From: Cyanobacteria bacterium RYN_339
GTDB taxonomy: Bacteria > Cyanobacteriota > Sericytochromatia > S15B-MN24 > JAQBPE01
DNA length: 64,000 nucleotides
NCBI GenBank assembly: GCA_028287685.1
Contig: JAQBPE010000490.1
Coordinates: 4,642-68,641 of the forward strand
Direction: 5' to 3'
A model generated the notes under the pieces. That model worked only from the letters and a program-made list of their open reading frames with translations, searched no databases and was not told the origin of the DNA. Below are positions 2,970 through 58,339 of this stretch, piece after piece. The position numbers were made by a program, and so were the translations under genes. Position 1 is the stretch's first letter. Each line of letters opens with the position of its first letter.

Positions 2970-4702
<1,733 letters not shown>

Positions 4703-20786: not shown

Positions 20787-23365
20787 GGCAGCGTTACCAG
20801 CACGCGCTCGTCGTTCCCACTCACCATCGGCGTTTGTTCCTGGTTGGCGCGGCGCGCTTCCCTGGCCACGTTGCCGGTCACGTAGGCCTTGAGCTCACCC
20901 ACCGTAACCTGGTGATCGTGGTTCGCGTCGGCCTCGCCTTGCAACCCCTTGAGCATGAAGTACGTGAACAGCCCGTGGTGCTTCGCCGCATAGCCCGTGC
21001 TCGTCTGGGAGCCGGCGGCCGCCGCGAAGACCGTGAGGCCAGCCGGCACCGCCTCCGCGTTCGTCTCGATGAACAGGGGCCGGAGGTTCGCCACGAGCGG
21101 CCGGGCCTGGTCGGTCCGGTTCGACTGGCCGCTGAAACACGAGTCCAGCATGACGGTGACGGAGCGCGCATGCAGCCGCGCCAGCGCGTCATAGGCCGTC
21201 GCCAACGAGTAGCATGACGTGGAGGGATAGGACGGGTTGCCGTCGAAAGGCACAAGGAACGCGCTCTTGGTCGCCGCATCCGGTGCGCCATGGCCGGCGA
21301 AGTAAACGTACAGGTCGGACTTGTCCTTCTCCACCCACCGCGCCAGCTGGCCCTCCAGGGCCGTGCGGATGTTGCCGCCGGTGGCCTGCTCATCCGTCAG
21401 CACGATGGCGTTCTCACGCGGGACGCCCAGCGCCCGCTCGCAGAAGCCGCGGAAGGCTGCGGCGTCCCGCCGGGCATAGGTCGCTTCGGGCAACTGGCCG
21501 TTGTAGCGTTCGATGCCGATCACCACCGCGAAAGCGTTGGGGTTTGGCGCCGCCGCGGGCCCCTTGATCGCCAGGTCGTCTTCCTCCGGAGCTGGTGCCA
21601 CGCTTGGTGCGGTCGCTTCCACCACGCGGTCGACGCTGGTGGGCGCCGCGCGGTCAAGCGTGACCTGGATCGGGGCGGTCACGCCGAACTCTGGATGCGC
21701 CTCGCTAACGACGATCTTGATCGGCAGCTGTTGCGGGCCGTCGTAGCGGTTCACCACCAGGATCGAGAAGCGCGCCTCCTTGCTGGCGCCGGGTGAGAGG
21801 TCTCCCAGCTCGATCGTCTCGTCCCCCGTGGGCTTGATGCGGGCGTCACCCAGCTGCAGCTTCGCCACCACCTGGTGCGCCAGGCCGGCGCCACCATTCA
21901 CGACTTGCACCCGCAGGTCGAGCTGCTCGCCTCGCTCCACCACGCCGTTCCCGTTGGCGTCCTCGATGCTCGGCCCGCGGATCGCCAGGGCCGGCTGGGC
22001 GAACCGGTGGGTCGCAAAGGTGGTCTTCATCAGCGGCGCATCGAACCCGAAGGCGTCCTCCAGGGCGATCTGAACGGTTGCCTTGCCTTCGACGAGATCC
22101 GTGCGGCCTTTCACCGGGACGATGGCTTTGCGGGTCTCGCCAGGCGCCAGGTCACCGATCGCCACCACCAACGGCACGCTTAGCCCGGCGGAGACGCCGC
22201 CCGCCTCGCAGGCCGCCCGCAACTGGGTCGCCTTGCCTTGGCCAACGTTTTGGATGGTCAGCTCGATCGAGGCCGCCTCGTCTGCCTCCAGCACCCCGTT
22301 GCCCGAGGCGTCCTTGAAGGCCGCAACGGCCTTCAGGAGCGGGGGCGCCTTCGGGCGCTCGGCCAGCAAGCCACCAGCGGGTGGCCCATGCCACCCGTAC
22401 CGATCGTCCACCATGCCGTCGTCCCGCGCCAACACGAAGGCGTTGGTCCCCGCCAGGAAGTGGGGCAGGTCGGCAGAGCCCGCGCCGGGCTGGCCGCTGT
22501 TCCAGGCCACCAGGTTGGCCGTGGCGTCTTGCTCCAGGCCCTGGAGGGGGGGTGTGGCGATGACGCCGCTTCCGTTCTGCGCGATCAAGTTGCCGATCAC
22601 GTTGGCGGCGCCCGTGGTGCTCGACGAGATGCCGGCTTCCGCGTTGCCGAGGATCGTGTTGTGCCGCAAGGTCGGCGCGGCCTGGTGGACCAGCAGGACC
22701 CCGAACTTGCCGTTCTCGCGGCAAAGGTTGTCTTCCGCGGTGCCTCTGCCCCGCCCGAAGTAGGCGATCCCTGCAAAGTGGTTTTTCTGGAGGACGTTCT
22801 GCCGCAAGGTCGGGGCGGCGTCATCCACGATGGCGATGCCATGCAAAATGCACCCCACGACCTCGCTACCCGTTACGCTGCCGTGGGCGTGGCCGGCAAA
22901 GCGGATCCCGATTTGCCCGCCGCCCTGGACCTTGACCCCGGCGATCGCCACGTCGCTGGACCCGCCCACCTGGACCGCCGTGCCGTTGGTCCAGAACTTG
23001 CAGCCACGCACGGTGGCCTTGGCGTCCACGAGCTCGATGGCGTCGCCCGGCGCAATGATGCTCAGATCCTCGATCACGACGTTCTCGATGCCCACACCGC
23101 GGATCACCGTCCCGTTCGACCAGTTTAGGCTGCCGCCGTCCCGCCCGCGCAAGGTGATGCCGGACTTCAGGGCCACCTGCTCCACGTGCGGGCCATGCAC
23201 CTCGATCACGTCGCCAGGGGTGGCCCTGGTGATCGCGCCCTGGACCGATTCCATCATCCCGACCGTGATGGGCAGGCGGCTTGTGCCGGCGCGCGCCGCG
23301 TTGCCGGGAAGCACCAACAGCGACGCAAGGACCAGGGGCAGCGTCAATTGAGGACGAGAGCGCAC
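20783..23365 (-). CDS. Exported multidomain orthocaspase: parallel beta-helix repeats, two CARDB/Ig-like modules, C-terminal peptidase C14 (caspase) domain
   Basis: GTG 23365 is preceded by GGAGG at -6 (the track starts at TTG 23392). Signal VRSRPQLTLPLVLASLLVLPGNAARA. PbH1-like repeats (G..I.....V.I.D..I) over about 22490-23275. Caspase block AFAVVIGIERY ... LYVYFAGHG ... VMLDSCFSG has the His/Cys dyad. DANHDHQVTVGELKAYV tail. Confidence 0.9.
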   Translation of the reverse strand: MRSRPQLTLPLVLASLLVLPGNAARAGTSRLPITVGMMESVQGAITRATPGDVIEVHGPHVEQVALKSGITLRGRDGGSLNWSNGTVIRGVGIENVVIEDLSIIAPGDAIELVDAKATVRGCKFWTNGTAVQVGGSSDVAIAGVKVQGGGQIGIRFAGHAHGSVTGSEVVGCILHGIAIVDDAAPTLRQNVLQKNHFAGIAYFGRGRGTAEDNLCRENGKFGVLLVHQAAPTLRHNTILGNAEAGISSSTTGAANVIGNLIAQNGSGVIATPPLQGLEQDATANLVAWNSGQPGAGSADLPHFLAGTNAFVLARDDGMVDDRYGWHGPPAGGLLAERPKAPPLLKAVAAFKDASGNGVLEADEAASIELTIQNVGQGKATQLRAACEAGGVSAGLSVPLVVAIGDLAPGETRKAIVPVKGRTDLVEGKATVQIALEDAFGFDAPLMKTTFATHRFAQPALAIRGPSIEDANGNGVVERGEQLDLRVQVVNGGAGLAHQVVAKLQLGDARIKPTGDETIELGDLSPGASKEARFSILVVNRYDGPQQLPIKIVVSEAHPEFGVTAPIQVTLDRAAPTSVDRVVEATAPSVAPAPEEDDLAIKGPAAAPNPNAFAVVIGIERYNGQLPEATYARRDAAAFRGFCERALGVPRENAIVLTDEQATGGNIRTALEGQLARWVEKDKSDLYVYFAGHGAPDAATKSAFLVPFDGNPSYPSTSCYSLATAYDALARLHARSVTVMLDSCFSGQSNRTDQARPLVANLRPLFIETNAEAVPAGLTVFAAAAGSQTSTGYAAKHHGLFTYFMLKGLQGEADANHDHQVTVGELKAYVTGNVAREARRANQEQTPMVSGNDERVLVTLP

Positions 23366-23411
23366 TGCCAACCTCCACGAGCAAACAGACAATCCTTCGG
23401 GATATACCCGA

Positions 23412-25316
23412 CTATATCTGTACTTTCATCGGTACCATCTTGCCGCTCGGGCTGGGAACACCCCCGTATTTGGCAAGAAACCCCGCAACGCGGGCCCTTG
23501 ACTGCACCAACTGGGCGGGGTCCAGCTTGGGGCGGAGGTCGGTTGCGGCCTTCAGGCACATCTGGTCGCTGTCCGCGCCCATCGCGAAGTAGGCATAGGC
23601 ATCCGCGGGCGTTTCCGCCAGCTGACCGAGGAAGTACATGGCGTGCGAAACGCCATGGGTGGCGGCGATCTCGTAGCATTCCCGCGCGCGGGCCGGATCC
23701 TTGGGCACGTCCTTGCCGTTCAAGGCCAACGACGCGGCCGTGAGCGCTCCGGTACCGTCCCCACCTTTGGCGGCCATATAGGACCACCGGAAGGCCGTCG
23801 GGCGGTTGAGCTCCACGCCCATGTTGCCATGACAAAACGCGTAGCCCAGGATCCCTTGGGCACGCGCGTTCCCGCCTTCGGCAAGCGCGGTCAACTCGGG
23901 CAAGGCATCTGCGATCGGCCGGGCTTGGTAAGCCAACGCGAGCGTATCGGCGGCCTCTTTGTTGCCGCTTCGGTATGCCAGCAGGCTCCACTTCCCGGCC
24001 TGGGCCATGTCCGATGGGTAGCCGGGCATGTAGTTGTAGGCCCGCGCCAGGCGGAGCATCGCCTTGGAGTTGCCAGCCTGTGCCGCTAGCAATGCGTAGC
24101 CGAACCAGGCCGGACGTTCGACCTTTCCGTCCGGGCCGTAGGCCGGGGTCTCCTTAACGCCCTCTGGCGGGTGCATTTCCAGCGTTTCTGCAACTTCGGA
24201 CGCCGCCACAGCCAGTTGTTCCGCCGGCATCCGCTGCTGCAATGCCAAGCGCAGGGGACCAGCCGACCGATCGCCGCGGGCCTGGGCGTATGCCAACATC
24301 TGGAAGCCCTTGACCGCGTCCGTGGCGCCCCCCAAGAGCTCGCCGGCCAGCGCCTGGGCCTCGACCAGGCCCGCGTCTGCGGCCTCCTTCGCAAGCCGCA
24401 AGGCCTCCTTGGGGCTGTGCTCCACGGCCTCGCCCTTCGCGTACAGCCGTGCCAGCCCCAGCTTGGCAAGCGGGAGATCCATCGACTCGTAGTAGAAGGA
24501 AGCGGCGCGAACCGCGTCACGCGGGATCCCCTCGCCTCGGTCGTAGATCAGGCCGGCCTGTAAGGCGGCCTCCCGATTGCCACGGAGAGGCTCCAGCAGC
24601 GCCAGGGCCTTCACGACATCGCGCTTCCCGCCAATCCCGCGCGCATACAGCATGCCGAGCCGCGAAGCTGCTTCGGTTCCCCAGCGGGGGTCTTGAAGCG
24701 CCTGCTCGTACAGCTTCGCGGCCTTTGCCGGGTCAGGCGCCGTGCCGCGGCCGTCTTCGAACATGGCGGCCAGGCAGCCCATGGCCAGCGCGTTCCCCCG
24801 CTCCGCAGCTTCTTGATACCAGGCCAGCGCCAGGGCCGGGTCGGCAGTCATCCCCTGGCCATGCTCGGCCATGTAGCCGGCCAACGCGCTGCCAGCTGGG
24901 TATTTGAGGCTGGCGGCAGCCTTGAAGGCGGCCAGCGCAGCCTGATCGTCGTGGGGATAGCCTTGCCATCCGCAAGCATAGTAGCTGCCGAGCGTAATGA
25001 AGCCCCGGCCATCCCCCGCCTGACCTGCCTTGCGCAACCAGGCTAGGCCATCGGCCTGGACCGCGGGGGGCGTGGCCGTGGAGAGCGCGGAGCTGCAATG
25101 GTAGCAACCAAGCCTGTACATTGCGCTGGCATCCCCAGCCAGTGCCTTGGCTTGGACGGCGTCGTAACCGGCGTTGAAATCGAGGTTCGCGAGGTCGGAA
25201 ATGACCAGACCGAACGGGCGATCGCCGAATGGCGCCGCGACAGCGGGCGAGGCCAGTGCCAGCAACGGCATGGCGACCAGGATGATGTGCAGGAGTTCGG
25301 AACGGAACTTGGGCAT
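23412..25316 (-). CDS. Sel1-like repeat protein, exported (first gene of the caspase operon)
   Basis: Signal LLHIILVAMPLLALASPAVA; at least 10 SLR units (e.g. GDASAMYRLGCYH, GNALAMGCLAAMFEDGRGTAPDPAKAAKLYEQA). Confidence 0.85.
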   Translation of the reverse strand: MPKFRSELLHIILVAMPLLALASPAVAAPFGDRPFGLVISDLANLDFNAGYDAVQAKALAGDASAMYRLGCYHCSSALSTATPPAVQADGLAWLRKAGQAGDGRGFITLGSYYACGWQGYPHDDQAALAAFKAAASLKYPAGSALAGYMAEHGQGMTADPALALAWYQEAAERGNALAMGCLAAMFEDGRGTAPDPAKAAKLYEQALQDPRWGTEAASRLGMLYARGIGGKRDVVKALALLEPLRGNREAALQAGLIYDRGEGIPRDAVRAASFYYESMDLPLAKLGLARLYAKGEAVEHSPKEALRLAKEAADAGLVEAQALAGELLGGATDAVKGFQMLAYAQARGDRSAGPLRLALQQRMPAEQLAVAASEVAETLEMHPPEGVKETPAYGPDGKVERPAWFGYALLAAQAGNSKAMLRLARAYNYMPGYPSDMAQAGKWSLLAYRSGNKEAADTLALAYQARPIADALPELTALAEGGNARAQGILGYAFCHGNMGVELNRPTAFRWSYMAAKGGDGTGALTAASLALNGKDVPKDPARARECYEIAATHGVSHAMYFLGQLAETPADAYAYFAMGADSDQMCLKAATDLRPKLDPAQLVQSRARVAGFLAKYGGVPSPSGKMVPMKVQI

Positions 25317-32121: not shown

Positions 32122-32877
32122 TTAGAACGCCCCGTGCCGGCCTTCGCCAGCAGCAAACCGCTCGGCGCCCGCCACGCCCTCGGCCAGGACGCTGCTGCCG
32201 CGCGCGAACTCGTCCGAAATCGCCACGTCCTCCGTCCAGCCCCATTGCTCGAACACGCCCGCCCGGTCCGCGCGCAGGCAGGACTGGGGGAAGGCCGCGA
32301 TTTGAGCGGCCAGTTCCAGGGCGGCCGGCAGCGTCTGGCCCGGGGCCACGAGGCGGTTAACCAGGCCCATGCGCAGGGCCTCCTCGCCGTAGACGCCGCG
32401 GCCCGTCAGGACCATATCCAGCGCGTGGCTCTGGCCGATCAGGCGCGGCAGGCGCACGGTTCCGCCGTCGATCAAGGGCACGCCGAAGCGGCGGCAGTAG
32501 ACGCCGAAAATCGCATCCGATGCCGCGACCCGCAGGTCGCACCAGATGGCGAGCTCCAGGCCGCCGGCCACCGCCGGGCCTTCCACCGCCGCGATCACGG
32601 GCTTGGAGAGTTGCATGCGCGTGGGCCCGAGCGGCCCGTCGCCCTCGGCGTCCGCCCGGTTGCCTTCGCCGGAAGCCACGGCCTTGAGGTCCGCGCCCGC
32701 GCAGAAAAATCCCCCGGCGCCCGTCAGCACCGCGACGGAGGCCGATTCATCCGCCTCGAAGGCCCGGAAGGCGGCCGCCAGCGCGTCCGCGGTGGCGCGG
32801 TCGACCGCGTTGCGGACTTCGGGGCGGTCGATCGTGATGACGCGGACGGGGCCGTGGTCGGTGACGAGGATGGGCAC
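32122..32877 (-). CDS. Enoyl-CoA hydratase/isomerase (crotonase) family protein
   Basis: VRVITIDRPEVRNAV ... VAVLTGAGGFFCAGADLKA oxyanion-hole motif. Confidence 0.9.
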   Translation of the reverse strand: MPILVTDHGPVRVITIDRPEVRNAVDRATADALAAAFRAFEADESASVAVLTGAGGFFCAGADLKAVASGEGNRADAEGDGPLGPTRMQLSKPVIAAVEGPAVAGGLELAIWCDLRVAASDAIFGVYCRRFGVPLIDGGTVRLPRLIGQSHALDMVLTGRGVYGEEALRMGLVNRLVAPGQTLPAALELAAQIAAFPQSCLRADRAGVFEQWGWTEDVAISDEFARGSSVLAEGVAGAERFAAGEGRHGAF

Positions 32878-34175
32878 TAGGCGGCGACCGCCGCCTCGGT
32901 GTTGGGCATGACCACGCTCACGGCCAGCTGGTGTGGCTTGTAGTGCTCGCGCAAGAGCACGTTGGCCTCGTCCAGCGTGATGCTCGCGATCACGTCGGGG
33001 ATGCCGAAGTAGTCCGCGTCCTTGAACAGCACGTCCGTCAGGTGGTTGGCGATCGCCTCCGGCGAGTTCAGCGCGTGGAGGTAGTCCCCCAGCTGCTTGC
33101 GCCGGCTGCGCTCGAACTCTTCGGTATCGAGCCCGGTCTCCACGAAGCGCTTCAACGCCTCGCCCACGGCCGCTTCCACGCCCGCGGGGTCATCGGTCTC
33201 CGTGCCCAGGTAGCTGAAGCCGTAGCCCGCGCCGCACTCGTAGTCGAACGAGAACGAGTCGTCGATCAACCCAGAGTCCAGCAGCTTCTGGAACAGCGTG
33301 GAGGAGCGGCCGAAGACCACGTCCTGGATCAGCCCCATCACCAGCTCGCGGCGGAGCTGCGAGCCGCTTTGGGCGGCGTTGGCGTCCTTGTAGCCCATCA
33401 GCACCAGCGGGCGTGACACGGCCAGGCTCACGGTATGGCGCGGCTCGCGCACGGTGCCCGGCTCCACCTCGAAGAAGCGCTGGATCTTGCGGGTGGGCTT
33501 GAAGTCCTTCTTGGCCTGGTTGGCCGTCACCTGGGCCAGCACCACTTCCGGGTCGAAGGGGCCCACCACGGCCAGCACCATGTTGCTGGGGTGATAGAAG
33601 GTGCTGTAGCAGGTCATCAGCGCGTCACGGTCGATCTTGTAGATCGACTCCACGGTGCCGGCGATGTCGATGCGCACGGGGCAGCGGTGGAACAGGATCT
33701 CCAGCAGGTGGCGGTAGCCGCGCCAGAAGGGCATGTCGTCGTACATGCGGATCTCCTGCTCGATGATGCCCTTTTCCTTCTCCACGTTCTCCGGCGTCAG
33801 GTGCGGACGCTGCACGAAGTCGAGCAGGGTCTCCAAGTTCTCGACCACGCGGTCGGTGGCCGAGAACAGGTAGGCCGTGCGGTTGTGGCTGGTGAAGGCG
33901 TTGGCGCTCGCGCCCTGCTCCGCGAAGGTGTGGAAGATGTCGCCCCACTCCTCCTCGAAGAGCTTGTGCTCCAGGAAGTGCGCGATGCCGTCCGTCACGT
34001 GCTGCTCGGGCTCGCCCTCCACCTGGAAGTGGTTGTCGATCGAGCCGTAGCGCGTGGTGAACACGGCGTAGGTCTTGGCGTAGTCCGGCTTCGGCACCAG
34101 CACCACCTGCAAGCCGTTCGGCAGGGTCTGGTTGTAGACCTTCTCCTGGATGGTCTCGTAAGTGGTGCTACGCAT
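32877..34175 (-). CDS. M16 (pitrilysin/insulinase) family zinc peptidase, catalytic subunit
   Basis: Inverted zinc motif HxxEH in GIAHFLEHKLFEE. 8-nt overlap with the upstream M16 gene and 1-nt overlap with the crotonase gene. Confidence 0.9.
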   Translation of the reverse strand: MRSTTYETIQEKVYNQTLPNGLQVVLVPKPDYAKTYAVFTTRYGSIDNHFQVEGEPEQHVTDGIAHFLEHKLFEEEWGDIFHTFAEQGASANAFTSHNRTAYLFSATDRVVENLETLLDFVQRPHLTPENVEKEKGIIEQEIRMYDDMPFWRGYRHLLEILFHRCPVRIDIAGTVESIYKIDRDALMTCYSTFYHPSNMVLAVVGPFDPEVVLAQVTANQAKKDFKPTRKIQRFFEVEPGTVREPRHTVSLAVSRPLVLMGYKDANAAQSGSQLRRELVMGLIQDVVFGRSSTLFQKLLDSGLIDDSFSFDYECGAGYGFSYLGTETDDPAGVEAAVGEALKRFVETGLDTEEFERSRRKQLGDYLHALNSPEAIANHLTDVLFKDADYFGIPDVIASITLDEANVLLREHYKPHQLAVSVVMPNTEAAVAA

Positions 34176-35445
34176 GAACGGCCTCCTTGTCCCTGAGGAA
34201 ATACACCGTGTCGAGCTGCAAGGTCTTCGCCACGCGCACGATGTCCTCGCGCGTGATCTTGGGGATCTCCGCGGCCAGGGCCTCGATGGGGCGCTCCAGG
34301 CCGGCCACTTCGCTCTCGAACGCCAGGTTGATCAAGGCGCCCGGGCTGTCATAAGCCTCGCGGTAGGTGTTGAGCGCCATCGCGCGCGTCTGGTCCAGCT
34401 CCTGGTCGGAGATGTCGCCCGCCTCCATGGCGGCGAACTGCTCCTTGATCACCGCCAGCGCGCGGTCGTGGTCCTCGATGTTGATGCCGGCCTGCACGAA
34501 GATCAGGCCCTTCATCGAGTCGTAGCGCGACCGGGCGGAGTAGGCCAGGCTCTCGCGCTCGCGCACGTTCACGAACAGCTTGGAGTGCGCGAAGGCGCCC
34601 AGGACGCCGTTGTACATCAGCATGGCCAGGTAATCGTCGTGGGCGTAGGTGATCGGGGTGCGCAGGCCCAAGACCAGCTGGCCCTGGTTCACGTCGTGGC
34701 GGTCCACCACGGTCTTCACCGCGCCGGCGCTGCCCGTCTTGAGGGCGCTGTCGAGGGCGGGGGCGGCGCGGCCGGGGAAGCGGAAGACCTGGTTCAGCTC
34801 CTCCGTCACGGCCTCGGGCTCGATGTCGCCCACGATGTACATGTCCATCGGCGCGCTGACGAGCAGGTCGAGGTACTCCTGGTACAGCAGCTCCGGCGTG
34901 ATGGTCGGCAGGTCCTCGATGCGGCCGCCGGAGTACAGGCGGTACGGCTCGTCGGGGCACATGGCCTCCGTGCAGCGCATGCGCGCGTACTGGGCCTTGT
35001 TGTTGAAGATGCCCTCCACGCGCTTGCGCAGGGCGTCCTTCTCCAGCGAGACGAAGCTTTCCTTGAAGCCCTTGCCCTCGATCACCGGCTGGGTGATCAT
35101 CTCGTGCAGGAAGGAAATCGCCTCCTTCAGCAGCTTGGGGCGGCCCGGCAGGTACTTGCCGTTGGGCACCTCCAAGCGGAACTGCATCACGTGGCGCTCG
35201 CCCAACTTGTAGACGTCCGCGTTCAAGTAGCTGCCGTAGAGGTGGTCCAGCTGGGCCTGCATCTCGCGCACGCTGGGGTAGCGGGTGCTGCCGCGCGTCA
35301 GCACGTAGGGCACCAACGCCGTGCGCGTGACCAGCCCTTCCGTGAGCGGGCGTTGGAGGTTCAGGACCAGGGTGTTGGTCTTGAACTTGTCCGTAGCCAG
35401 CAGGTGCAGGCTCAAGTCCGGGTGCGCGTGGCGGGTAAATTGCAT
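34168..35445 (-). CDS. M16 family peptidase-like protein, non-catalytic partner (no HxxEH)
   Basis: M16 fold pattern, but the zinc motif is replaced (ALVPYVLTRGS). ATG 35445 (MQFTRHAHPD) chosen; the 121-codon upstream extension in the track looks like non-coding Arg/Gly/Ala-rich read-through. Confidence 0.8.
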   Translation of the reverse strand: MQFTRHAHPDLSLHLLATDKFKTNTLVLNLQRPLTEGLVTRTALVPYVLTRGSTRYPSVREMQAQLDHLYGSYLNADVYKLGERHVMQFRLEVPNGKYLPGRPKLLKEAISFLHEMITQPVIEGKGFKESFVSLEKDALRKRVEGIFNNKAQYARMRCTEAMCPDEPYRLYSGGRIEDLPTITPELLYQEYLDLLVSAPMDMYIVGDIEPEAVTEELNQVFRFPGRAAPALDSALKTGSAGAVKTVVDRHDVNQGQLVLGLRTPITYAHDDYLAMLMYNGVLGAFAHSKLFVNVRERESLAYSARSRYDSMKGLIFVQAGINIEDHDRALAVIKEQFAAMEAGDISDQELDQTRAMALNTYREAYDSPGALINLAFESEVAGLERPIEALAAEIPKITREDIVRVAKTLQLDTVYFLRDKEAVHA

Positions 35446-35536: not shown

Positions 35537-37186
35537 ATGTACGACATCATCCCCATGAACGCGCCCCGCACGACCGGCTGGCGGTTGTCCGCGTTGGCGG
35601 GGCTGTTGGAGCACCCGTTGGCCGGACCGCCGCTCGCGGAGTACCTGTTCGGGCTCGTGGGGATGCAGCGCCTGCGTAGTTGCGCGCCGCCGGACGCGTT
35701 GCCATCCATCCACCCGCTGTTGGCGGGCTTCCCCCTGGCAGAGCCCTCGCCGCTGGCGGCCCCGCCCGCCGTCGCGGCCGAGCACGCCCCGGAAGGCTTC
35801 CCCTTCAAGACCGTCGCGGACTTCGCACGCGCCTACCGCGAGGGCCTCTCGCCAGTGGAGGTGGCGGAGAAGGTGCTGGCGCGGCGCAAGGCGCTTGACC
35901 AGGCCCAGAAGCCCCTGGGTGCCTTCATCGCCCAGGACGAGGCCGACGTGCGTGCCCAGGCGCGGGCCTCCGCGGAGCGGTTTGCCGCGGGCAAGCCGTT
36001 AGGCCCGCTGGACGGCGTGCCGATCGCCATCAAGGACGAGCTGGACCAGCTGGGCTACGCGACCACGGTCGGCACGCGCTTCCTGGGCGCCGCCCCCGCC
36101 GCAAAGGACGCGGAAGTGGTGCGGCGGCTCAGGGCCGCGGGTGCCGTGCTGATCGGCAAGACGAACATGCACGAGATCGGTATGGGCGCGACCGGCCACA
36201 ACGTGCACCACGGCGCGGCGCGCAACCCGTATGACCTGGACCGCGCGGCGGGCGGCAGCTCCGGTGGCTCCGCGGCGGCGGTGGCGGCGGGGCTGTGTCC
36301 GGCGGCGGTGGGCGCAGACGGCGGTGGTTCGATCCGCATCCCCGCGTCCTTGTGCGGCCTGGTGGGCCTGAAGCCAACCTTCGGGCGCGTCAGCGAGCAG
36401 GGCGCGGCCCCGATTTGCTGGAGCCTGGCGCATGTGGGACCGCTGGCCGCCAGCGCGGAGGATGCGGCGCTGCTGTACATGCTGATGGCCGGCAAGGACG
36501 CGGGCGATCCGACCACCTGGCACCAGCCGGCACCGACCCAGGCCGCGGACCTCCGAGGCCTCAAGCTGGGCGTGTTCCGCCCCTGGTTCGAAGACGCGGA
36601 TGACGCCGTGGTGACGGCTTGTTCCGGCATGCTGGCGGAGCTGGGGGCGCAGGTGGTGGAAATCCAGCTGCCGGAGTTGGGTCTGGCCGCTACGGCCCAT
36701 ATGGTCACGATCGCAGCGGAAATGGCCGCCTCGCAGGCACCGCACTTCCCGTCCAGAAGGCGGGACTATTCGCCGGAGGTCCAGTTCAACCTGGCCCTGG
36801 CCCGGCGGTTGCGCGCGGCGGACTACGCCCAGGCCCAGCGCATCCGGGTCGCCCAGTACCGCGCGTTCATGGACGCGTTCCGCCTCGTGGACGCCATCGT
36901 CACGCCAGGCGTGGCCTGCGTGGCGCCCCTGCTGTCCAGGGAGGCCCTCACGAGCGGCGAGAGCGACCTGGTCCTGCTGGACCGGCTCATGCGCTACGCG
37001 CGGCCGGCCAACCTGACGGGGCTGCCGGCGATCGCCTTCCCGGCCGGCTACGACGTGGACGGGCTGCCCATCGGCATGCAGGTCATGGGCCGCCCCTGGG
37101 ACGAGGGGCGGCTGCTGGGCATCGCCAGGGCGGCGGAGCGCGCCGTGCCGCGCAAGGCGCCCGGCGTGTACACGTCCCTCTTATAG
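35537..37186 (+). CDS. Amidase-signature family amidase
   Basis: GVPIAIKDE (Lys) and the signature GGSSGGSAAAVAAG. Confidence 0.9.
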   Translation: MYDIIPMNAPRTTGWRLSALAGLLEHPLAGPPLAEYLFGLVGMQRLRSCAPPDALPSIHPLLAGFPLAEPSPLAAPPAVAAEHAPEGFPFKTVADFARAYREGLSPVEVAEKVLARRKALDQAQKPLGAFIAQDEADVRAQARASAERFAAGKPLGPLDGVPIAIKDELDQLGYATTVGTRFLGAAPAAKDAEVVRRLRAAGAVLIGKTNMHEIGMGATGHNVHHGAARNPYDLDRAAGGSSGGSAAAVAAGLCPAAVGADGGGSIRIPASLCGLVGLKPTFGRVSEQGAAPICWSLAHVGPLAASAEDAALLYMLMAGKDAGDPTTWHQPAPTQAADLRGLKLGVFRPWFEDADDAVVTACSGMLAELGAQVVEIQLPELGLAATAHMVTIAAEMAASQAPHFPSRRRDYSPEVQFNLALARRLRAADYAQAQRIRVAQYRAFMDAFRLVDAIVTPGVACVAPLLSREALTSGESDLVLLDRLMRYARPANLTGLPAIAFPAGYDVDGLPIGMQVMGRPWDEGRLLGIARAAERAVPRKAPGVYTSLL

Positions 37187-38467
37187 GGTGGGCTCTTCCG
37201 GGACGTTTTCCATCCCCTGGTAGAGCTTGCAGAGCTGCAGCGCGATGGCGCTGGGCGGCTGGGCCTTGTCGGAGCGGCCGTTCCAGTCCTTCAGGAACTG
37301 CGCCTCGGCCTGGGCGGGGGCGCGGCCGCCATGGACCTCCAGGTTGGTCTCGGCCACGGTCTCGAAGCCGCCCTTGGTCCAGTTGATCGAGCCCGCGAAG
37401 ACCGTTTCGCCGTCGATCACCGCGATCTTCATGTGCGCGGTCGTGAAGTCGTCGCCCACGTGGTACTGGCGCACGTCCATCTTGGCGGTCAAGAGCGCGT
37501 CCAGCGCCACGGCGTTGACCACGCCCTTGGGCGCCAGGTGGATCACCGGCACGAAGGGGTCGACGTTGCCGGGATCGAGCAGGATCTTCACGTCCACGCC
37601 GCGGCCGCGCGCCGCGATCAAGGCGTCGAGCACCGGGCCCGGGCCCAGCTCGTGCATCTGGAGGTGGATGCTGTGCTTGGCGCCGGCCAAGAGCGGCTTG
37701 AGGGCTTCGAAGCCGGTCTGGTGGCCCAGCCCGGTGCCGATCATGCGCACCTGCGACTGGTCGCCGCCCAGGCGGCCGAACAGGCCGGAGGCGGGCACGG
37801 CGTGGACCAGCAAGCCGGGGGCCTTGGCCTGCGGGTGGGCGGCGTACCACCAGTCGAAGTCGTGCTGGCGGGCCAGGTCGCGCGCCACGGGGCCCGTCAC
37901 GTGCATCATCAGGTCGTGGTAGTTGTAGAACTTCTTGGCGAGGTTCATCGAGCCCACCAGGGCCTCGCTCTCGTCGATCACGAAGTACTTGTTGTGGTCG
38001 ATCGTGTCGCCCTTCACCTTGGGCGGCAAGGGCGCCACGGAGTGGACCAGCACGGACACGCCGCCAGCTTTCAATTTCTCGTAGACGGGCAGGCACTGGC
38101 CGCGCATCTCCGGGATCTTGCCGAAGGCGCTGTCCAGCATCACGCGCACGTCCAGGCCGGCCTTGCGCTTGGCGATCAGGGCGTTGGCCAGGCGGTCGGC
38201 CGTGGGGCCGCCGAAGATGTAGTAGTCCAGCTTGATCGAGCGGGTGGCCTTCGCCACCAGCTTCTCCATGGCGTCGAAGGTGGCCATGTCGTAGAGCATG
38301 TCCACGTCGCCGCCGGAGAACTCCGGGGCGGGGAAGGCCGGCGGCGCGTCGGCGCCCTGGGCGGCCAGGTTGCCCGTCGGCAAGCCCGTGCCGGTCAGCG
38401 CGGTGCCGTGGCCGCAGGCGGTCACGAGCAGGCTGGTCAGGGCGGCAAGGGGAAGCTTGAAGCGCAC
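37181..38467 (-). CDS. Phospholipase D-family lipoprotein (two HKD motifs)
   Basis: GTG start with GGAGGA at -6; lipobox LLVTACG; HKD motifs IDHNKYFVIDESEALVGSMN and AHMKIAVIDGETVFAGSIN. Confidence 0.9.
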   Translation of the reverse strand: MRFKLPLAALTSLLVTACGHGTALTGTGLPTGNLAAQGADAPPAFPAPEFSGGDVDMLYDMATFDAMEKLVAKATRSIKLDYYIFGGPTADRLANALIAKRKAGLDVRVMLDSAFGKIPEMRGQCLPVYEKLKAGGVSVLVHSVAPLPPKVKGDTIDHNKYFVIDESEALVGSMNLAKKFYNYHDLMMHVTGPVARDLARQHDFDWWYAAHPQAKAPGLLVHAVPASGLFGRLGGDQSQVRMIGTGLGHQTGFEALKPLLAGAKHSIHLQMHELGPGPVLDALIAARGRGVDVKILLDPGNVDPFVPVIHLAPKGVVNAVALDALLTAKMDVRQYHVGDDFTTAHMKIAVIDGETVFAGSINWTKGGFETVAETNLEVHGGRAPAQAEAQFLKDWNGRSDKAQPPSAIALQLCKLYQGMENVPEEPTL

Positions 38468-38587
38468 GGTGGATCCTCCAGATGGGATCCGTTATCCGCC
38501 GGTGGGCTTGTCGTACCGGTTCAGGGCCGGTAAAGGTGCGGTTAAATGCTCGTAAAGCTTGCTGAGACCTTGCTCCTCGCGCGCGGC

Positions 38588-39007
38588 TTAGGCGGCCAGG
38601 CTCCGCGCGGTGGCGCGCTTCTGCGTCTGCAGCAGCATGTCCACCTGGATCCGGCGCACCAGGCCCTCTTCCAGCAGCAGCTCGCCCAGGCGCTTGCCGC
38701 TGGTGGCGCGGCGCTCCAGGGCTCCCACCAGCTGGCTGGGCTTGAGCACGCCGTGCTCGACCAGCAGCACGCCCAGGGGCGCGGTGCCAGGGGCGCCGGC
38801 CAGCTTCCGCTGCATCGCCAGGTAGCCGACCATGTCGCCGGGGCTCACCATGCCGAGCGAGAGCACGACCTGGCCGAAGGGGACGCGGCGGCCGCCGGCG
38901 CAGCGGGCTTCCCAGGCGGACAGCGCGCGGCGCGCCATCTCGGGGCTCAGGACGCCCTCGGTCTCGAGGATCGTGCACAACAACGGCTTCTTCTTGACCT
39001 GCTCCAC
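38588..39007 (-). CDS. Stand-alone MshEN/T2SSE_N-like protein, putative c-di-GMP receptor (paralog 1)
   Basis: GTG start with GAAGGAGG at -6. PLGVLLVEHGVLKPSQLVGALERR + ATSGK + RLGELLLEEGLVRRIQVDMLLQTQ gives two 24-residue motifs with a 5-residue spacer (nt 38621-38779). Confidence 0.8.
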   Translation of the reverse strand: MEQVKKKPLLCTILETEGVLSPEMARRALSAWEARCAGGRRVPFGQVVLSLGMVSPGDMVGYLAMQRKLAGAPGTAPLGVLLVEHGVLKPSQLVGALERRATSGKRLGELLLEEGLVRRIQVDMLLQTQKRATARSLAA

Positions 39008-39288
39008 CGGGGGCCTCCTTCATGCCTATCTAAACGCCCTCACAGGGGCGGCTAGCAGGGGAAGGACAGGCCCGGGCGTCCATGGCTTCCGGTTGAAGCC
39101 GACCCGGCGGATGCGCGACTACGTCAGCGCCGACGGGATCCCCCGGTCTGCCGGGGAGGTTGCAGAGCGAACTCGAGGTTCGAGATACCTGTCTACAAGA
39201 ACCCTATCCGGACACAACGACGCCACCTGACGTCAAATCTTCGTCAAGCGGCGTGAAATGGATGTGAAAGGCTTGTTAAGCGGAGATT

Positions 39289-39711
39289 CTAAGAGGCGAT
39301 CGGGCGGGCCTGGAACCGCAGCAGGACCTCGAGTTGGGGCGCGCGCAGCACGCCTTCGTCGATCAGCAGCTCGCCCAGGCGCTGGCCGGTGCGGGCCTGG
39401 AGCATCAGGGCCGCGAACACCTGGCTGGGGCGCAAGATCGCGTTCTCGATCAGCAGGTGTCCCAAAGGCTTGGCGCCGCCCGGCTTGAAGGCCAGCTTGC
39501 GCTGCAGATCCAGGAACGGCTGCATCTCGTGATCCGTCAGCATGCCGAGCGAGATCACGACCTGGCCGAAGGGCAGCACCTGACCGTCACGCTTGCGCTG
39601 GCCCCACTCTTGCAGAGCGGTATCCAGCTCCTCGCGGGTGAGCGCGTCCTCACGCATGAGGATCGTGTACAGCAGGGGCTTCTTGAGCGGCGTATCGAGC
39701 GACGAGGACAT
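39289..39711 (-). CDS. Stand-alone MshEN/T2SSE_N-like protein, putative c-di-GMP receptor (paralog 2)
   Basis: ATG 39711 (GGAG at -9) preferred over TTG 39717. PLGHLLIENAILRPSQVFAALMLQ + ARTGQ + RLGELLIDEGVLRAPQLEVLLRFQ (nt 39310-39468). Confidence 0.8.
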   Translation of the reverse strand: MSSSLDTPLKKPLLYTILMREDALTREELDTALQEWGQRKRDGQVLPFGQVVISLGMLTDHEMQPFLDLQRKLAFKPGGAKPLGHLLIENAILRPSQVFAALMLQARTGQRLGELLIDEGVLRAPQLEVLLRFQARPIAS

Positions 39712-39726
39712 GGGCAATCTCCAGGG

Positions 39727-39769
39727 GTGAAAGAAAAGAATCCCTTGCCGGTATTATCGGCAAGGGATT
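39727..39769 (-). terminator. Rho-independent terminator / leader attenuator hairpin
   Basis: Minus strand: AATCCCTTGCCG-ATAATAC-CGGCAAGGGATT forms a perfect 12-bp stem, followed by CTTTTCTTTC. The hairpin base (39739) lies 27 nt before the paralog-2 ATG at 39711. Confidence 0.65.
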
Positions 39770-39859
39770 GCTGTTAATTGTCTGTGTTTAATCAATCTTG
39801 CCGCAATCTTAACCGATCCGATACCGGATCTCGTGCGACAAGCCCAGGGGCTTGGGAGC

Positions 39860-40393
39860 CTACTCTTCGGCCGTGAGGGTCTGCGCGACCTTCTTGGCCT
39901 GGGCGATCCACTTGGTGACGGTGGCCAGCGACGGCGTGCCATCAACGAAGTGCGGCTTGAAGGCGTTGGCCTGGGCCACGCGCTCCGCCAGGTTGTCGGC
40001 ATCGCGGCGGGCCAGCTCCGTCACGGAGTCCACGCCCACGGCCTGCAGCAAGTTGGACTGGCGGACGCCCACGCCGTCGACCTTCATCAGGGCGACCTTC
40101 TGCGCGATCTTCAGGACGTTGGCGTAGGGGATGCCGGTGTCGTCCGCCAGCTTGTGGCGGCGGTAGCGGTTGGACGTGGACTCCAGCAGATCGCCGGTGT
40201 CCTTCACGCCAGCCTTGCGCAGCTTGGCGCCGTACACGGGGCCGATGCCCATCATGTCTTCGACGGGGTAGGCGCGCAGGGCGTCGACCGACTGCGCGGC
40301 AACGGTGGTGGAGGCCAGGGGGGCCGTGGGGGCGGCGTGGCAGCCGGCCAGCAGGGCGACGGCGGCGAGCAGGGACGCGGTCTTCGAGGTCAT
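39860..40393 (-). CDS. DUF4332-like (helix-hairpin-helix) lipoprotein
   Basis: AAGGAG SD; lipobox LLAGC; HhH-like GIGPVYGAKLRKAGV and VDGVGVRQSNLLQAVGV. Confidence 0.7.
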   Translation of the reverse strand: MTSKTASLLAAVALLAGCHAAPTAPLASTTVAAQSVDALRAYPVEDMMGIGPVYGAKLRKAGVKDTGDLLESTSNRYRRHKLADDTGIPYANVLKIAQKVALMKVDGVGVRQSNLLQAVGVDSVTELARRDADNLAERVAQANAFKPHFVDGTPSLATVTKWIAQAKKVAQTLTAEE

Positions 40394-49681: not shown

Positions 49682-49720
49682 TTTAATTTAAGCAGCAAAT
49701 ATTTTGATAGTCAAATTAAA
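49682..49720. promoter_or_regulatory. Inverted repeat in the AT-rich divergent promoter region (candidate operator)
   Basis: tttaattt (49682-49689) and aaattaaa (49713-49720) form a perfect 8-bp inverted repeat with a 23-nt spacer. Confidence 0.3.
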
Positions 49721-49737
49721 GTGCTGGACCGCCGCCA

Positions 49738-50478
49738 TTGTACCCGGTGGGCTATGATGTGGCGGTGTCGGATACCGCTCTCCAAGGCGCCACGTTCTTG
49801 ACCGCCGAGTGGCGGCACCTGGCCATGATCAACTACGCGATCGACCCCGCGGTGCTGCTGCCCGTGGTCCCGCGCGGCACGGAGCTGGACCTCTGGCAGG
49901 GCGAAGCCTACGTCAGCCTGGTGGGCTTCATGTTCCAGGACACGCGCCTGCTGGGCGTGCCCATCCCGTTCCACCGCTCCTTCGAGGAGGTCAACTTGCG
50001 CTTCTACGTGCGCCGGGGCGACAAGCGCGGCGTGGTGTTCATCAAGGAGCTGGTGCCCAAGGCCGCCGTGGCCGCCGTGGCGCGCTGGGTCTACCGCGAG
50101 AACTACGAGGCGGTGCCGATGGACCACCTGGTGTTGGAGGGGGGGCGCGTGGAGTACAGCTGGCGCTACGGCGGCCGCACCCACCACCTGGCCGTGCACC
50201 CGGAGGGCCCCTTCGAGCCCCTGATCCCGGGCACGGAGCCGGCGTTCATCGCGGAGCATTATTGGGGCTACGCCGCCCAGCGCGACGGCGGCACCATGGA
50301 ATACCAGGTGGCGCACCCGCCTTGGCGCGCCGCGCGCGTGCGCACGCCGGAGGTGGACATCGACGCGGCGGCGCTCTATGGGGCGGCCTACGCCCCGGCG
50401 CTGTCTGCCGCCCCGCGCTCGGCCTTCCTGGCGGAGGGCTCGGCGATCGCGGTGGGCCGGGGCACGCGCCTTGGCTAA
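49738..50478 (+). CDS. DUF2071 (YqjF-like) family protein
   Basis: FLTAEWRHLAMINYAIDPAVLLPVVPRGTELDLWQGEAYVSLVGFMF matches the recalled family pattern. Start is uncertain (TTG 49738 or GTG 49747-49765). Confidence 0.65.
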   Translation: MYPVGYDVAVSDTALQGATFLTAEWRHLAMINYAIDPAVLLPVVPRGTELDLWQGEAYVSLVGFMFQDTRLLGVPIPFHRSFEEVNLRFYVRRGDKRGVVFIKELVPKAAVAAVARWVYRENYEAVPMDHLVLEGGRVEYSWRYGGRTHHLAVHPEGPFEPLIPGTEPAFIAEHYWGYAAQRDGGTMEYQVAHPPWRAARVRTPEVDIDAAALYGAAYAPALSAAPRSAFLAEGSAIAVGRGTRLG

Positions 50479-56918: not shown

Positions 56919-56997
56919 GATCCGCCCTCCTGCTGTCTGTATGTCATACCCAAGTGGCGCGGTAGCCTGGAAGGCCCGGCCGATGTAAGATGGCGTG

Positions 56998-57882
56998 ATG
57001 CCCAAGAAACAAGGCCATTTGGTGATCGTCGGCGGCCCGGAGAGCCGCGTTCCGGAACGCGAGATCCTGACGCGCGCCGCGCACCTGGCCGGTGGCGCCA
57101 GCACGCGGGTTTGCATCCTGGCGGCGGGCAAGAAGGCCAACGCCGACCACCTGTCGGCCTTGGGCACGGCCTTCGACGCCCTGGGCGTGCGCGGCGTGAC
57201 CTGCCACCTGCTGGCCGACCGCAAGCAGGTGGACGCCCCGGAGGTGCTGGAGGCGATCGACGCGGCGAGCTGCGTGGTGCTGACGGCCGCGGACCCGGCG
57301 GACCTGGCCAAGGCCTTCAAGGGCACCACGGCGGAGCGCCGCGTGCACGAGGCCTTCGAGCGCCGGGGCGCCTGCGTCATGGTGGTGGGCGGCGCGTCCT
57401 CCGGCATCTCGCGCCACATGGTGGCGGAGGGCAAGAGCGACATCCACCCGCGCGCCGGGCTGATCTCCCTGACGGAGGGCCTGGGCTTCCTCGACCGCGT
57501 GGTGATCGACCACCACTTCTCCGACAAGCAGCGCATGGGCCGCCTGCTCTCGATCGTGGCCCAGAAGCCGGACCTGATCGGCGTGGGCGTGGACGCGCGC
57601 ACGGCCATGGTCGTGACGCCGGGGCGCCGGCTGGAGGTGATCGGCCAGGCCACGGTCACGATCCTGGACGGCCGCACCATGAGCTACTGCAGCGCCGGCC
57701 AGGTGCCCCCGGACGCGATCCTCGCCATGGGCAACGTGCAACTGCACCTGCTGCCCGCCGGCTTCGCCTTCGACCTGGAGGGCGGCCTGCCCCCCTCGCG
57801 CGGCGTGATCGGCGCGAAGGTTCCCCCCGCCTTGCACGAGGTGGTCTCACAGCTCGTGAGCGCGCTTCCCTTCAAGCCCTGA
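56998..57882 (+). CDS. Cyanophycinase-like peptidase (family S51)
   Basis: GHLVIVGGPE N-terminus, Ser-nucleophile region VMVVGGASSGIS, VVIDHHFSDKQRMGRL block typical of CphE/CphB-type enzymes. Confidence 0.8.
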   Translation: MPKKQGHLVIVGGPESRVPEREILTRAAHLAGGASTRVCILAAGKKANADHLSALGTAFDALGVRGVTCHLLADRKQVDAPEVLEAIDAASCVVLTAADPADLAKAFKGTTAERRVHEAFERRGACVMVVGGASSGISRHMVAEGKSDIHPRAGLISLTEGLGFLDRVVIDHHFSDKQRMGRLLSIVAQKPDLIGVGVDARTAMVVTPGRRLEVIGQATVTILDGRTMSYCSAGQVPPDAILAMGNVQLHLLPAGFAFDLEGGLPPSRGVIGAKVPPALHEVVSQLVSALPFKP

Positions 57883-57934: not shown

Positions 57935-58339
57935 ATGCCCCAAGACATCGAGTTGTTGGCGCTCATCATGGAGCGCGAAGGCTACCTGACCCGGCAACAG
58001 GTCCAACATGCGATGGCGGTCCAGCAGCACCAGGTCACCCTGGGGCGGGCTTTCTCGTTCGGCGAAGTGGCCGTGAAGCTAACGTTTTGCACCGACACGG
58101 ACGTGCGCTACGCCCAGTCGATCGAGGCCCGCCTGGAGGTCCCGGCCGGCCAGCGGCGCCCGTTGGGCTATTACTTGCTGGAGGCCGGCGCGTTGCTGCC
58201 CTCCCAGCTGCTGGAAGGGCTGGAGGAACAGGCCTTCTACGGCAGCCGCCTGGGCGAGATCCTGGTGCGCAACGGGTGGGTCGCGGAGCCGGACATCGAG
58301 CGCGCGTTGGCGCAGCAGAAGGCCACGGTGCCGGGCTAA
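57935..58339 (+). CDS. Stand-alone MshEN/T2SSE_N-like protein, putative c-di-GMP receptor (paralog 3)
   Basis: GAGGGGGA SD. PLGYYLLEAGALLPSQLLEGLEEQ + AFYGS + RLGEILVRNGWVAEPDIERALAQQ (nt 58160-58318). Confidence 0.8.
   Translation: MPQDIELLALIMEREGYLTRQQVQHAMAVQQHQVTLGRAFSFGEVAVKLTFCTDTDVRYAQSIEARLEVPAGQRRPLGYYLLEAGALLPSQLLEGLEEQAFYGSRLGEILVRNGWVAEPDIERALAQQKATVPG

Follow-up and report, generated by a model that had tools for sequence, protein, structure and literature searches.

To our knowledge, MshEN is one of only three widespread receptor modules for cyclic di-GMP (c-di-GMP), and what is known of it comes almost wholly from the ATPases of pili and secretion systems. Here we describe free-standing MshEN-type proteins encoded in a 64,000-nucleotide stretch of DNA from Cyanobacteria bacterium RYN_339 (contig JAQBPE010000490.1, positions 4,642 to 68,641 of the forward strand), referred to below as the window. 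Two of them, Paralog 1 (P1) and Paralog 2 (P2), are the products of adjacent genes, and a third (P3) is encoded elsewhere in the window. Each consists of two copies of the helical MshEN_N bundle, an arrangement denoted (MshEN_N)2, and we propose that they are probably small cytoplasmic receptors for c-di-GMP.

Free-standing MshEN_N proteins and the closest described systems

In Vibrio cholerae MshE (5HTL; Wang et al. 2016, PMC5013675) the binding site is a 53-residue block within the four-helix MshEN_N bundle, composed of two copies of a 24-residue motif with the strict consensus RLGxx(L/V/I)(L/V/I)xxG(L/V/I)(L/V/I)xxxxLxxxLxxQ and a 5-residue spacer between them; the ligand-contacting residues of MshEN are Arg(1), Leu(2), Gly(3), Leu(17), Leu(21), and Gln(24) of both motifs. 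The window proteins share this two-motif site and bundle, but differ from MshE in having neither the MshEN_C subdomain nor an ATPase, in carrying the site in their C-terminal half behind a second, degenerate MshEN_N bundle, and in having a proline instead of an arginine at position 1 of motif I. The lack of MshEN_C is not expected to prevent binding, since the isolated VcMshEN_N(1–65) binds c-di-GMP with a dissociation constant (KD) of 0.35 uM (Wang et al. 2016, PMC5013675) and MshEN_C is thus dispensable.

The best match among structures in the PDB is the GSPII-C domain of T. thermophilus PilF (6F8L/6EJF; PMC11731258), with the profile of the window family aligning over positions 35–126 to PilF residues 291–380. 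GSPII-C, which aligns to P2 residues 42–127, likewise has three consecutive motif copies of which the middle one begins with a proline (P335), but it belongs to a set of three domains at the N-terminus of an 889-amino acid pilus ATPase and has an alpha/beta subdomain behind it, whereas the window proteins are free-standing and have a fourth pseudo-motif.

The closest precedent for the overall layout is catalogued under 'MshEN_N only' in Supplementary Table 4 of Wang et al. 2016 (PMC5013675), which lists an (MshEN_N)2 protein of Cyanothece sp. ATCC 51142, cce_1044 (ACB50395); (MshEN_N)2 arrangements are also named in the main text of that paper. Like the window proteins, cce_1044 is free-standing, about 145 residues long, built of two MshEN_N bundles alone, and from the cyanobacterial phylum. 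By BLASTP, using a cce_1044 sequence taken from the paper's supplement with five residues unread, the similarity is nonetheless at the level of the motifs only (41% over about 50 residues, in matches of 44–53 residues) and is not collinear over the full length, and it is the N-terminal bundle that is the more canonical in cce_1044 but the C-terminal one in the window proteins. For these two reasons we regard the window family as separate, and its members not as orthologs of cce_1044. The (MshEN_N)2 architecture is therefore already known, and the window family is a new, lineage-specific example of it. In the literature searched we came across no work on what stand-alone MshEN_N proteins do.

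The same motif block occurs in the E. coli glycosyltransferase NfrB and in the tyrosine kinase EpsG (MshEN_N-AAA_31), where the output domain is covalently attached; the window proteins would in contrast need their output to be supplied in trans. Small c-di-GMP receptors that bind a partner protein in a ligand-dependent manner are known among the stand-alone PilZ adaptors (MapZ, PlzA, DgrA). The analogy with these is functional only, as PilZ is an unrelated beta-barrel fold and its RxxxR and DxSxxG motifs are not present in the window proteins.

P1 and P2 are tandem (MshEN_N)2 proteins

The two genes and the segments of them that carry the motifs and bundles are as follows.

38588..39007, minus strand: Paralog 1 (P1), (MshEN_N)2-type protein of 139 amino acids; GTG start, with an AAGGAGG ribosome-binding site 6 nt ahead of it
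39289..39711, minus strand: Paralog 2 (P2), (MshEN_N)2-type protein of 140 amino acids; ATG start after a GGAG ribosome-binding site
38621..38779, minus strand: P1 motif pair, residues 77–129, PLGVLLVEHGVLKPSQLVGALERR-ATSGK-RLGELLLEEGLVRRIQVDMLLQTQ; translation verified
39310..39468, minus strand: P2 motif pair, residues 82–134, PLGHLLIENAILRPSQVFAALMLQ-ARTGQ-RLGELLIDEGVLRAPQLEVLLRFQ; translation verified
38810..38983, minus strand: P1 degenerate N-terminal MshEN_N bundle, residues 9–66, from hhalign; 10-residue linker instead of 5
39502..39675, minus strand: P2 degenerate N-terminal MshEN_N bundle, residues 13–70, from hhalign, motif scan, and family alignment

The original prediction, made from the sequence of this region, described two adjacent minus-strand paralogs of 139 and about 140 residues, and the open reading frames (ORFs) are indeed present at these positions, with products 50% identical across 130 residues (E=5e-39); the mechanical ORF of P2 begins at a TTG two codons before the ATG, and the peptide strings quoted earlier all match the translation exactly. 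In this genome of 70% GC, the GC content of the two genes is 0.90–0.96 at third codon positions (GC3; 0.96 in P1) and 0.38–0.47 at second positions (GC2), and the ratio of nonsynonymous to synonymous substitution rates (dN/dS) against orthologs is 0.13–0.52. By both measures P1 and P2 are real genes, and they are under purifying selection. Many of the long overlapping ORFs in the window are high-GC artefacts that fail the GC3/GC2 test, an example being a 646-amino acid Arg/Pro/Gly-rich ORF at 37083–39023 (minus strand) that spans P1 and the neighboring PLD gene.

We translated the window in all six frames (525 segments, 99,080 residues) and searched it with the relaxed MshEN motif (Wang et al. 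2016, PMC5013675), written [RKPN]hGxxhhxx[GAS]hhxxxxhxxxhxx[QNKRYWST], which gave eight occurrences, all inside three ORFs, with the pair of motifs at a 5-residue spacing present three times, once each in P1, P2, and P3. Residue shuffles (n=300) yielded a mean of 0.23 single motifs, a maximum of three, and no pairs, and the pairs in the window are thus far in excess of chance. The earlier description of two 24-residue motifs exactly five residues apart in each C-terminal half is borne out by regular expression and translation alike. Motif II of P2 is a perfect match to the strict consensus and its motif I departs at positions 1 (P), 10 (A), and 17 (V), while P1 departs in motif I at positions 1 (P) and 24 (R) and in motif II at position 17 (V).

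Assignment to the MshEN class was also as predicted. The NCBIfam model NF053729 ('cyclic di-GMP-binding domain-containing protein, MshE-related'; 53 positions, cut-off 38 bits) matches P1 with 62.7 bits at residues 77–129 and P2 with 62.9 bits, in both cases over all 53 positions. A phmmer search of PDB sequences with P2 returned T. thermophilus PilF (2.8e-9), V. cholerae MshE 5HTL (1.4e-4), and PilB ATPases, and a profile of 25 family members returned PilF at 2.5e-13 and MshE at 4.3e-8; neither search gave anything outside the MshEN/GSPII class, so that the unrelated helical family that would have spoken against the assignment was not encountered. We found no further Pfam or NCBIfam domain in either protein. 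The sub-threshold Pfam matches are to DUF4388 and FumaraseC_C only, and the sub-threshold NCBIfam local matches of P1–P3 are to NfrB (residues about 477–545) and EpsG (residues about 5–57). Two other assignments were considered and rejected: PATAN/DUF4388 (PF14332), which scores 19.0 and 15.2 bits against a gathering threshold of 25 over some 35 profile positions overlapping motif II, and PilZ, for which these ORFs contain neither an RxxxR ... D/NxSxxG pattern by regular expression nor a Pfam match. Nor do P1, P2, P3, or the neighboring DUF4332 protein match any defence-system model in PADLOC.

An AlphaFold2 (AF2) model of P2 built from the family alignment (pLDDT 89.7, pTM 0.81) is made up of eight helices, which form two equivalent sets with a short-long-short-long pattern: helices 13–20, 26–41, 48–54, and 60–73 are mirrored by 83–89, 95–108, 112–118, and 124–135. 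In Foldseek comparisons of the model with the PDB, MshE and the PilF GSPII domains rank first (5htl_A at 1.4 A over 55 columns, 44% identity), although with E-values of 1 or more because the matched domain is short, and the C-terminal bundle of the model has the MshEN_N four-helix fold. The N-terminal half, as had been suggested, is a degenerate copy of the same helical module: hhalign aligns it with the C-terminal half in register over 60 collinear columns (E=2e-4), with a linker five residues longer. The segment PFGQVVLSLGMVSPGDMVGYLAMQ in the N-terminal bundle of P1 satisfies the relaxed motif, and at position 3 of the first pseudo-motif the glycine is replaced by a cysteine in P1 and position 3 is a tyrosine in P2. 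The alpha/beta subdomain MshEN_C is absent, as the models are all-helical without strands and the proteins end 5–10 residues past motif II. P1 and P2 are thus (MshEN_N)2 proteins, a degenerate N-terminal bundle followed by a near-consensus C-terminal one, with no MshEN_C. Of the original proposal that MshEN makes up the whole protein, what stands is that the proteins are free-standing and have no other domain; what does not is its extent and its novelty, since it is the MshEN_N subdomain only and the layout had already been catalogued.

The predicted c-di-GMP site

Comparison of the 25 family members shows little or no variation at L2, G3, L21, and Q24 in either motif, and a valine at position 17 in some members; L2, G3, L21, and Q24 are also the positions whose loss accounts for the failure of XpsE to bind. 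The sole systematic departure is at position 1 of motif I, where all 25 have a proline and none an arginine. The relaxed motif permits a proline here (Wang et al. 2016, PMC5013675), and PilF GSPII-C, which has one at the same place (P335), binds c-di-GMP with a KD of 0.32–0.46 uM (Neissner et al. 2024, PMC11731258); PilF GSPII-B binds it at 6 nM without an arginine at either position 1.

The variation at position 1 can also be read in another way, namely that these are ligand-independent helical docking modules in which nucleotide binding has been lost or is unused, as in the N-domains of Xanthomonas XpsE/GspE or X. citri PilB. Many MshEN domains no longer bind, including XpsE and D. geothermalis PilB_3, for which binding is not detectable (PMC5013675), and the universal Arg(1) to Pro change in motif I, together with replacement of the motif II arginine in some members, would fit such a loss, as would the fact that no c-di-GMP enzymes were seen in the window or in 175 kb of related loci. 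X. citri PilB-N (7lkm/7lko), which is a binder of PilZ, is moreover among the Foldseek matches, but its identity to the model is 11% as against 44% for MshE. Because the residues lost in XpsE (G3, L17/L21, Q24, and the glycine of motif II) are largely kept in the family, the NF053729 scores are well above the cut-off, and PilF GSPII-C binds its ligand with Pro(1) in place, we consider a docking module of this type unlikely.

A second possibility is that the ligand is a different nucleotide, for example 3'3'-cGAMP or some other cyclic dinucleotide that contains guanine, with one of the two base pockets retuned by Pro(1) and, in P1, by Arg(24). The departures from consensus are indeed concentrated in motif I, itself the source of one of these pockets, c-di-GMP enzymes are not seen locally, and VcMshEN_N has a weak affinity for cGAMP (KD 0.33 mM; Wang et al. 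2016, PMC5013675). However, Gly(3) and the position-4 backbone geometry that read the O6 and N7 of guanine are kept in both motifs, P2 and P3 retain Gln(24) in both, and PilF GSPII-C has the same proline and binds c-di-GMP; a change of ligand thus seems highly improbable.

We return to c-di-GMP reception, for which several observations weigh on the other side. The arginine of motif II is replaced by P, Q, or L in some members, and P1 has an arginine rather than a glutamine at position 24 of motif I. The search with Pfam T2SSE_N (PF05157), proposed originally as a check, gave no match for either protein at E<=1, the Foldseek E-values are as given above, and the catalogued protein cce_1044 does not appear in the isothermal titration calorimetry table of Wang et al. 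(Supplementary Table 6; PMC5013675). A motif scan of the 64-kb window found no GGDEF, HD-GYP, PilB Walker A, PilZ, or convincing EAL sequences, and one of 175 kb of related Sericytochromatia loci found no GGDEF, EAL, HD-GYP, PilB Walker A, or PilZ; a Pfam scan of about 35 window ORFs agrees in finding no GGDEF, EAL, HD-GYP, PilZ, or pilus genes, as the original prediction had noted for GGDEF, EAL, and pilus genes. Such signaling genes are scattered, and their local absence is weak evidence. Finally, the conserved gene order described below may in part mirror shared descent within one class and not function.

With these points taken into account, we think it probable, on the strength of the motifs and domain matches, that P1, P2, and P3 are small cytoplasmic c-di-GMP receptors acting through partner proteins; ligand binding, a 1:1 stoichiometry, and a partner-mediated output are what we infer for all three. 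The 53-residue site of the C-terminal bundle would clamp one monomeric c-di-GMP, as in MshE and PilF, by means of two leucine triads, the backbone amides at the glycine of each motif, and the terminal glutamine. The N-terminal bundle, which is placed where MshEN_C or an enzyme domain sits in other proteins, may then be the output face, and binding of c-di-GMP would alter the protein's conformation or its surface, with a consequent change in how it associates with a partner, in a manner parallel to that of the stand-alone PilZ adaptors. MshE proteins substituted at the motif glycines, G11L and G40I, show poor, if any, binding (Wang et al. 2016, PMC5013675), and since Gly(3) of the N-terminal bundle is a cysteine in P1 and a tyrosine in P2, we expect one live site per protein. 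Many orthologs keep a glycine at position 3 of the first pseudo-motif, and these might carry two.

A family of the Sericytochromatia

A word-indexed search identified 29 homologs of P2, of 97–154 amino acids (most are 136–154, and one is a 97-residue fragment), all of them unnamed or annotated as 'hypothetical protein' and two from Candidatus Sericytochromatia metagenome-assembled genomes (MAGs). When one genome was scanned for each GTDB species, six loci emerged, all in Sericytochromatia MAGs. A profile search of 1.84 billion representatives gave 4064 matches at E<=1e-3, for the most part to MshEN proteins of other kinds, with 20 of the matches reaching E<=1e-30. Among the top 150, about 29 are proteins of 86–165 residues with a single full-length match. 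From these searches, the family of P1–P3 appears to be restricted to Candidatus Sericytochromatia, which are uncultured and related to the cyanobacteria.

The nearest longer relatives, of 389–564 amino acids, contain two whole 140-residue modules joined by Pro/Ala-rich linkers, and because the module occurs in them twice and entire, we take its eight helices to be one evolutionary unit. Three of these (P0031, P0033, and P0043) have an N-terminal region with weak, sub-threshold similarity to DUF4160/DUF2442. We considered whether such proteins could serve as 'Rosetta stone' fusions, but they offer only extra copies of the module and hence no information on partners.

The N-terminal bundle and the LQRKLA-x-x-P linker are conserved as strongly as the site itself, with 15 invariant positions. 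This bears on the suggestion that the proteins are c-di-GMP buffers or sinks without a specific partner, abundant small paralogs that would sequester the messenger and set thresholds. Strong conservation of the bundle and linker would be needless for a pure sink, and each paralog lineage retains its own neighbor, either an M16 peptidase pair or a cyanophycinase gene, as set out in the sections that follow. The presence of three paralogs within 64 kb, their small size with a single predicted high-affinity site, and the lack of an enzymatic or DNA-binding output domain would be in keeping with buffering, but we judge it improbable overall, and somewhat more so than the docking modules discussed above.

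Gene neighborhoods of P1 and P2

The receptors that we favor would require partners, and candidates were sought in gene order, using a synteny map made by tblastn over 10 usable related loci (numbered with the prefix L below). The relevant features near P1 and P2 are the following.

37181..38467, minus strand: PLD-family lipoprotein, 120 bp downstream of P1; PLDc_2 1.6e-37
32877..35445, minus strand: M16 peptidase pair, an M16_C-only gene at 34168..~35445 and an M16+M16_C gene at 32877..34175; internal start estimated
39860..40393, minus strand: DUF4332 (helix-hairpin-helix) protein, upstream of P2; PF14229 2e-28
39008..39288, minus strand: spacer of 281 nt between P2 and P1, partially conserved with L003
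39739..39769, minus strand: hairpin and T-run between the DUF4332 gene and P2; stem of 12–14 bp, 27 nt ahead of the P2 start codon (ATG)

The tandem pair of (MshEN_N)2 genes is retained in L003, L004, and L012, with P1 orthologs at the same tandem position in L003 and L004. An M16 pair lies directly downstream of the (MshEN_N)2 gene or genes in seven of the ten loci (L002/L011, L003, L004, L010, L012, L013/14, and L016); in the window, the PLD gene and an amidase gene stand between P1 and the M16 pair. The homolog is immediately preceded by a DUF4332 gene in L001 and L003; in L002/L011 and L013/L014 that gene lies some 5 kb upstream. We note that L013 and L014 (JAYKHR010000045.1, 122381–136782 and 141909–156310) are the same 14.4-kb segment present twice, inverted and about 5 kb apart on a single MAG contig, carrying DUF4332 ... 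MshEN_N2 and the M16 pair; either the segment has undergone a large inverted duplication or the assembly contains a palindrome.

The original prediction pointed to a PLD-family lipoprotein on the same strand downstream, and this gene does encode two HxKxxxxD (HKD) motifs, HNKYFVID and HMKIAVID, and a signal peptide with an LVTAC lipobox. A PLD gene adjoins the homolog in two other loci, L009 (67% identical, downstream) and L010 (distant, upstream, with a 14-bp gap), so that the M16 pair and, for P3, cyanophycinase are better conserved neighbors. Because the PLD protein is exported and the (MshEN_N)2 proteins have no signal peptide, direct contact with the mature protein is unlikely, and with it a role for PLD as a direct partner of P1 and P2. 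A defence role for PLD was considered and set aside, as there is just a generic DrmC-like similarity (<=50 bits, PADLOC) and there are no other DISARM genes nearby.

The 281-nt spacer is conserved solely with the closest relative, L003 (positions 4391–4650), at 87% across 54 nt and 75% across 139 nt; the long identical runs fall within ACGCCGCTTGACGAAGATTTGACGTCAGG and form a predicted 13-bp hairpin, and the predicted fold of the spacer has a z-score of -3.5 against shuffles. No Rfam family was matched anywhere in the window at gathering thresholds, and for 38400–39900 even a limit of E<=1 brought up no credible candidate; in particular, the spacer shows no c-di-GMP riboswitch, and no terminator is predicted there. 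The spacer is probably the promoter or leader of P1, and could comprise a promoter/operator or a structured leader. The strong hairpin and T-run ahead of P2 could end transcription of the DUF4332 gene or, as part of a P2 leader, act as an attenuator.

A third paralog adjacent to a cyanophycinase gene

P3, which did not figure in the original prediction and was found by the motif scan, lies on the opposite strand together with a gene for a cyanophycinase.

57935..58339, plus strand: Paralog 3 (P3), 134 amino acids, same architecture; NF053729 69.7 bits, residues 76–128
56995..57882, plus strand: cyanophycinase (peptidase S51), 52 bp upstream of P3; TIGR02069 178.7 bits, cut-off 126.6

Across its full length P3 shares 33% identity with P2; it has 27 homologs, and its AF2 model (pLDDT 90.6) has the same eight-helix pattern. 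An S51 gene lies immediately upstream and on the same strand in every P3 ortholog examined (L005/L006, L007, L008, and L017), and the pair is thus present in all five distinct loci seen, with a gap of 52–130 bp; the cyanophycinases across these loci are just 39–63% identical and the flanking genes differ. A scan of metagenome contigs with the P3 alignment gave 56 loci, 53 of which are motif-only matches in unrelated MshEN_N proteins, and L017 was the sole ortholog. Of all our data, the cyanophycinase-P3 pairing hints most strongly at a functional partner, and the pair may be an operon that ties c-di-GMP to the breakdown of cyanophycin, although we found no link between cyanophycinase and c-di-GMP in the literature searched.

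Divergent from the cyanophycinase gene in the window is a gene at 54321–~56945 (minus strand) for a protein of about 870 amino acids without a Pfam match, with Asp/Ala/Lys-rich repeated segments and hydrophobic stretches near its C-terminus; its mechanical ORF (1119 amino acids) is over-extended and runs antisense into the cyanophycinase gene. The window also encodes a Peptidase_C14 (caspase-like)/beta-helix protein at 20783–23425 (minus strand) and a DUF2071 protein at 49720–50478 (plus strand), and homologs of these two types are found immediately upstream of the cyanophycinase-P3 pair in L005/L006.

By gene order, the best candidate partners would be the M16 pair for the P1/P2 lineage and cyanophycinase for the P3 lineage. 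A more specific proposal is that the (MshEN_N)2 proteins regulate the adjacent peptidases in a c-di-GMP-dependent manner, with P3 acting on cyanophycinase and P1 and P2, possibly as a heterodimer, on the M16 pair. We regard this as a speculative and, on present indications, rather unlikely form of partner-mediated output. Were it correct, P3 would govern the mobilization of cyanophycin nitrogen reserves through cyanophycinase, and there would be a new link from c-di-GMP to proteolysis or nitrogen storage in non-photosynthetic relatives of the cyanobacteria.

Significance

At present, the assignment of P1, P2, and P3 is a sound annotation of a known architecture and not a surprise. Its value is that this family of 134–140-residue proteins provides compact test cases in the Sericytochromatia, a lineage with little functional annotation, and that gene order yields concrete candidates for partners, namely cyanophycinase, the M16 pair, and PLD. 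If the predicted binding is true, a class of c-di-GMP receptor would be added for the Sericytochromatia, and if the link to the peptidases is also true, it would represent a new output of c-di-GMP signaling.

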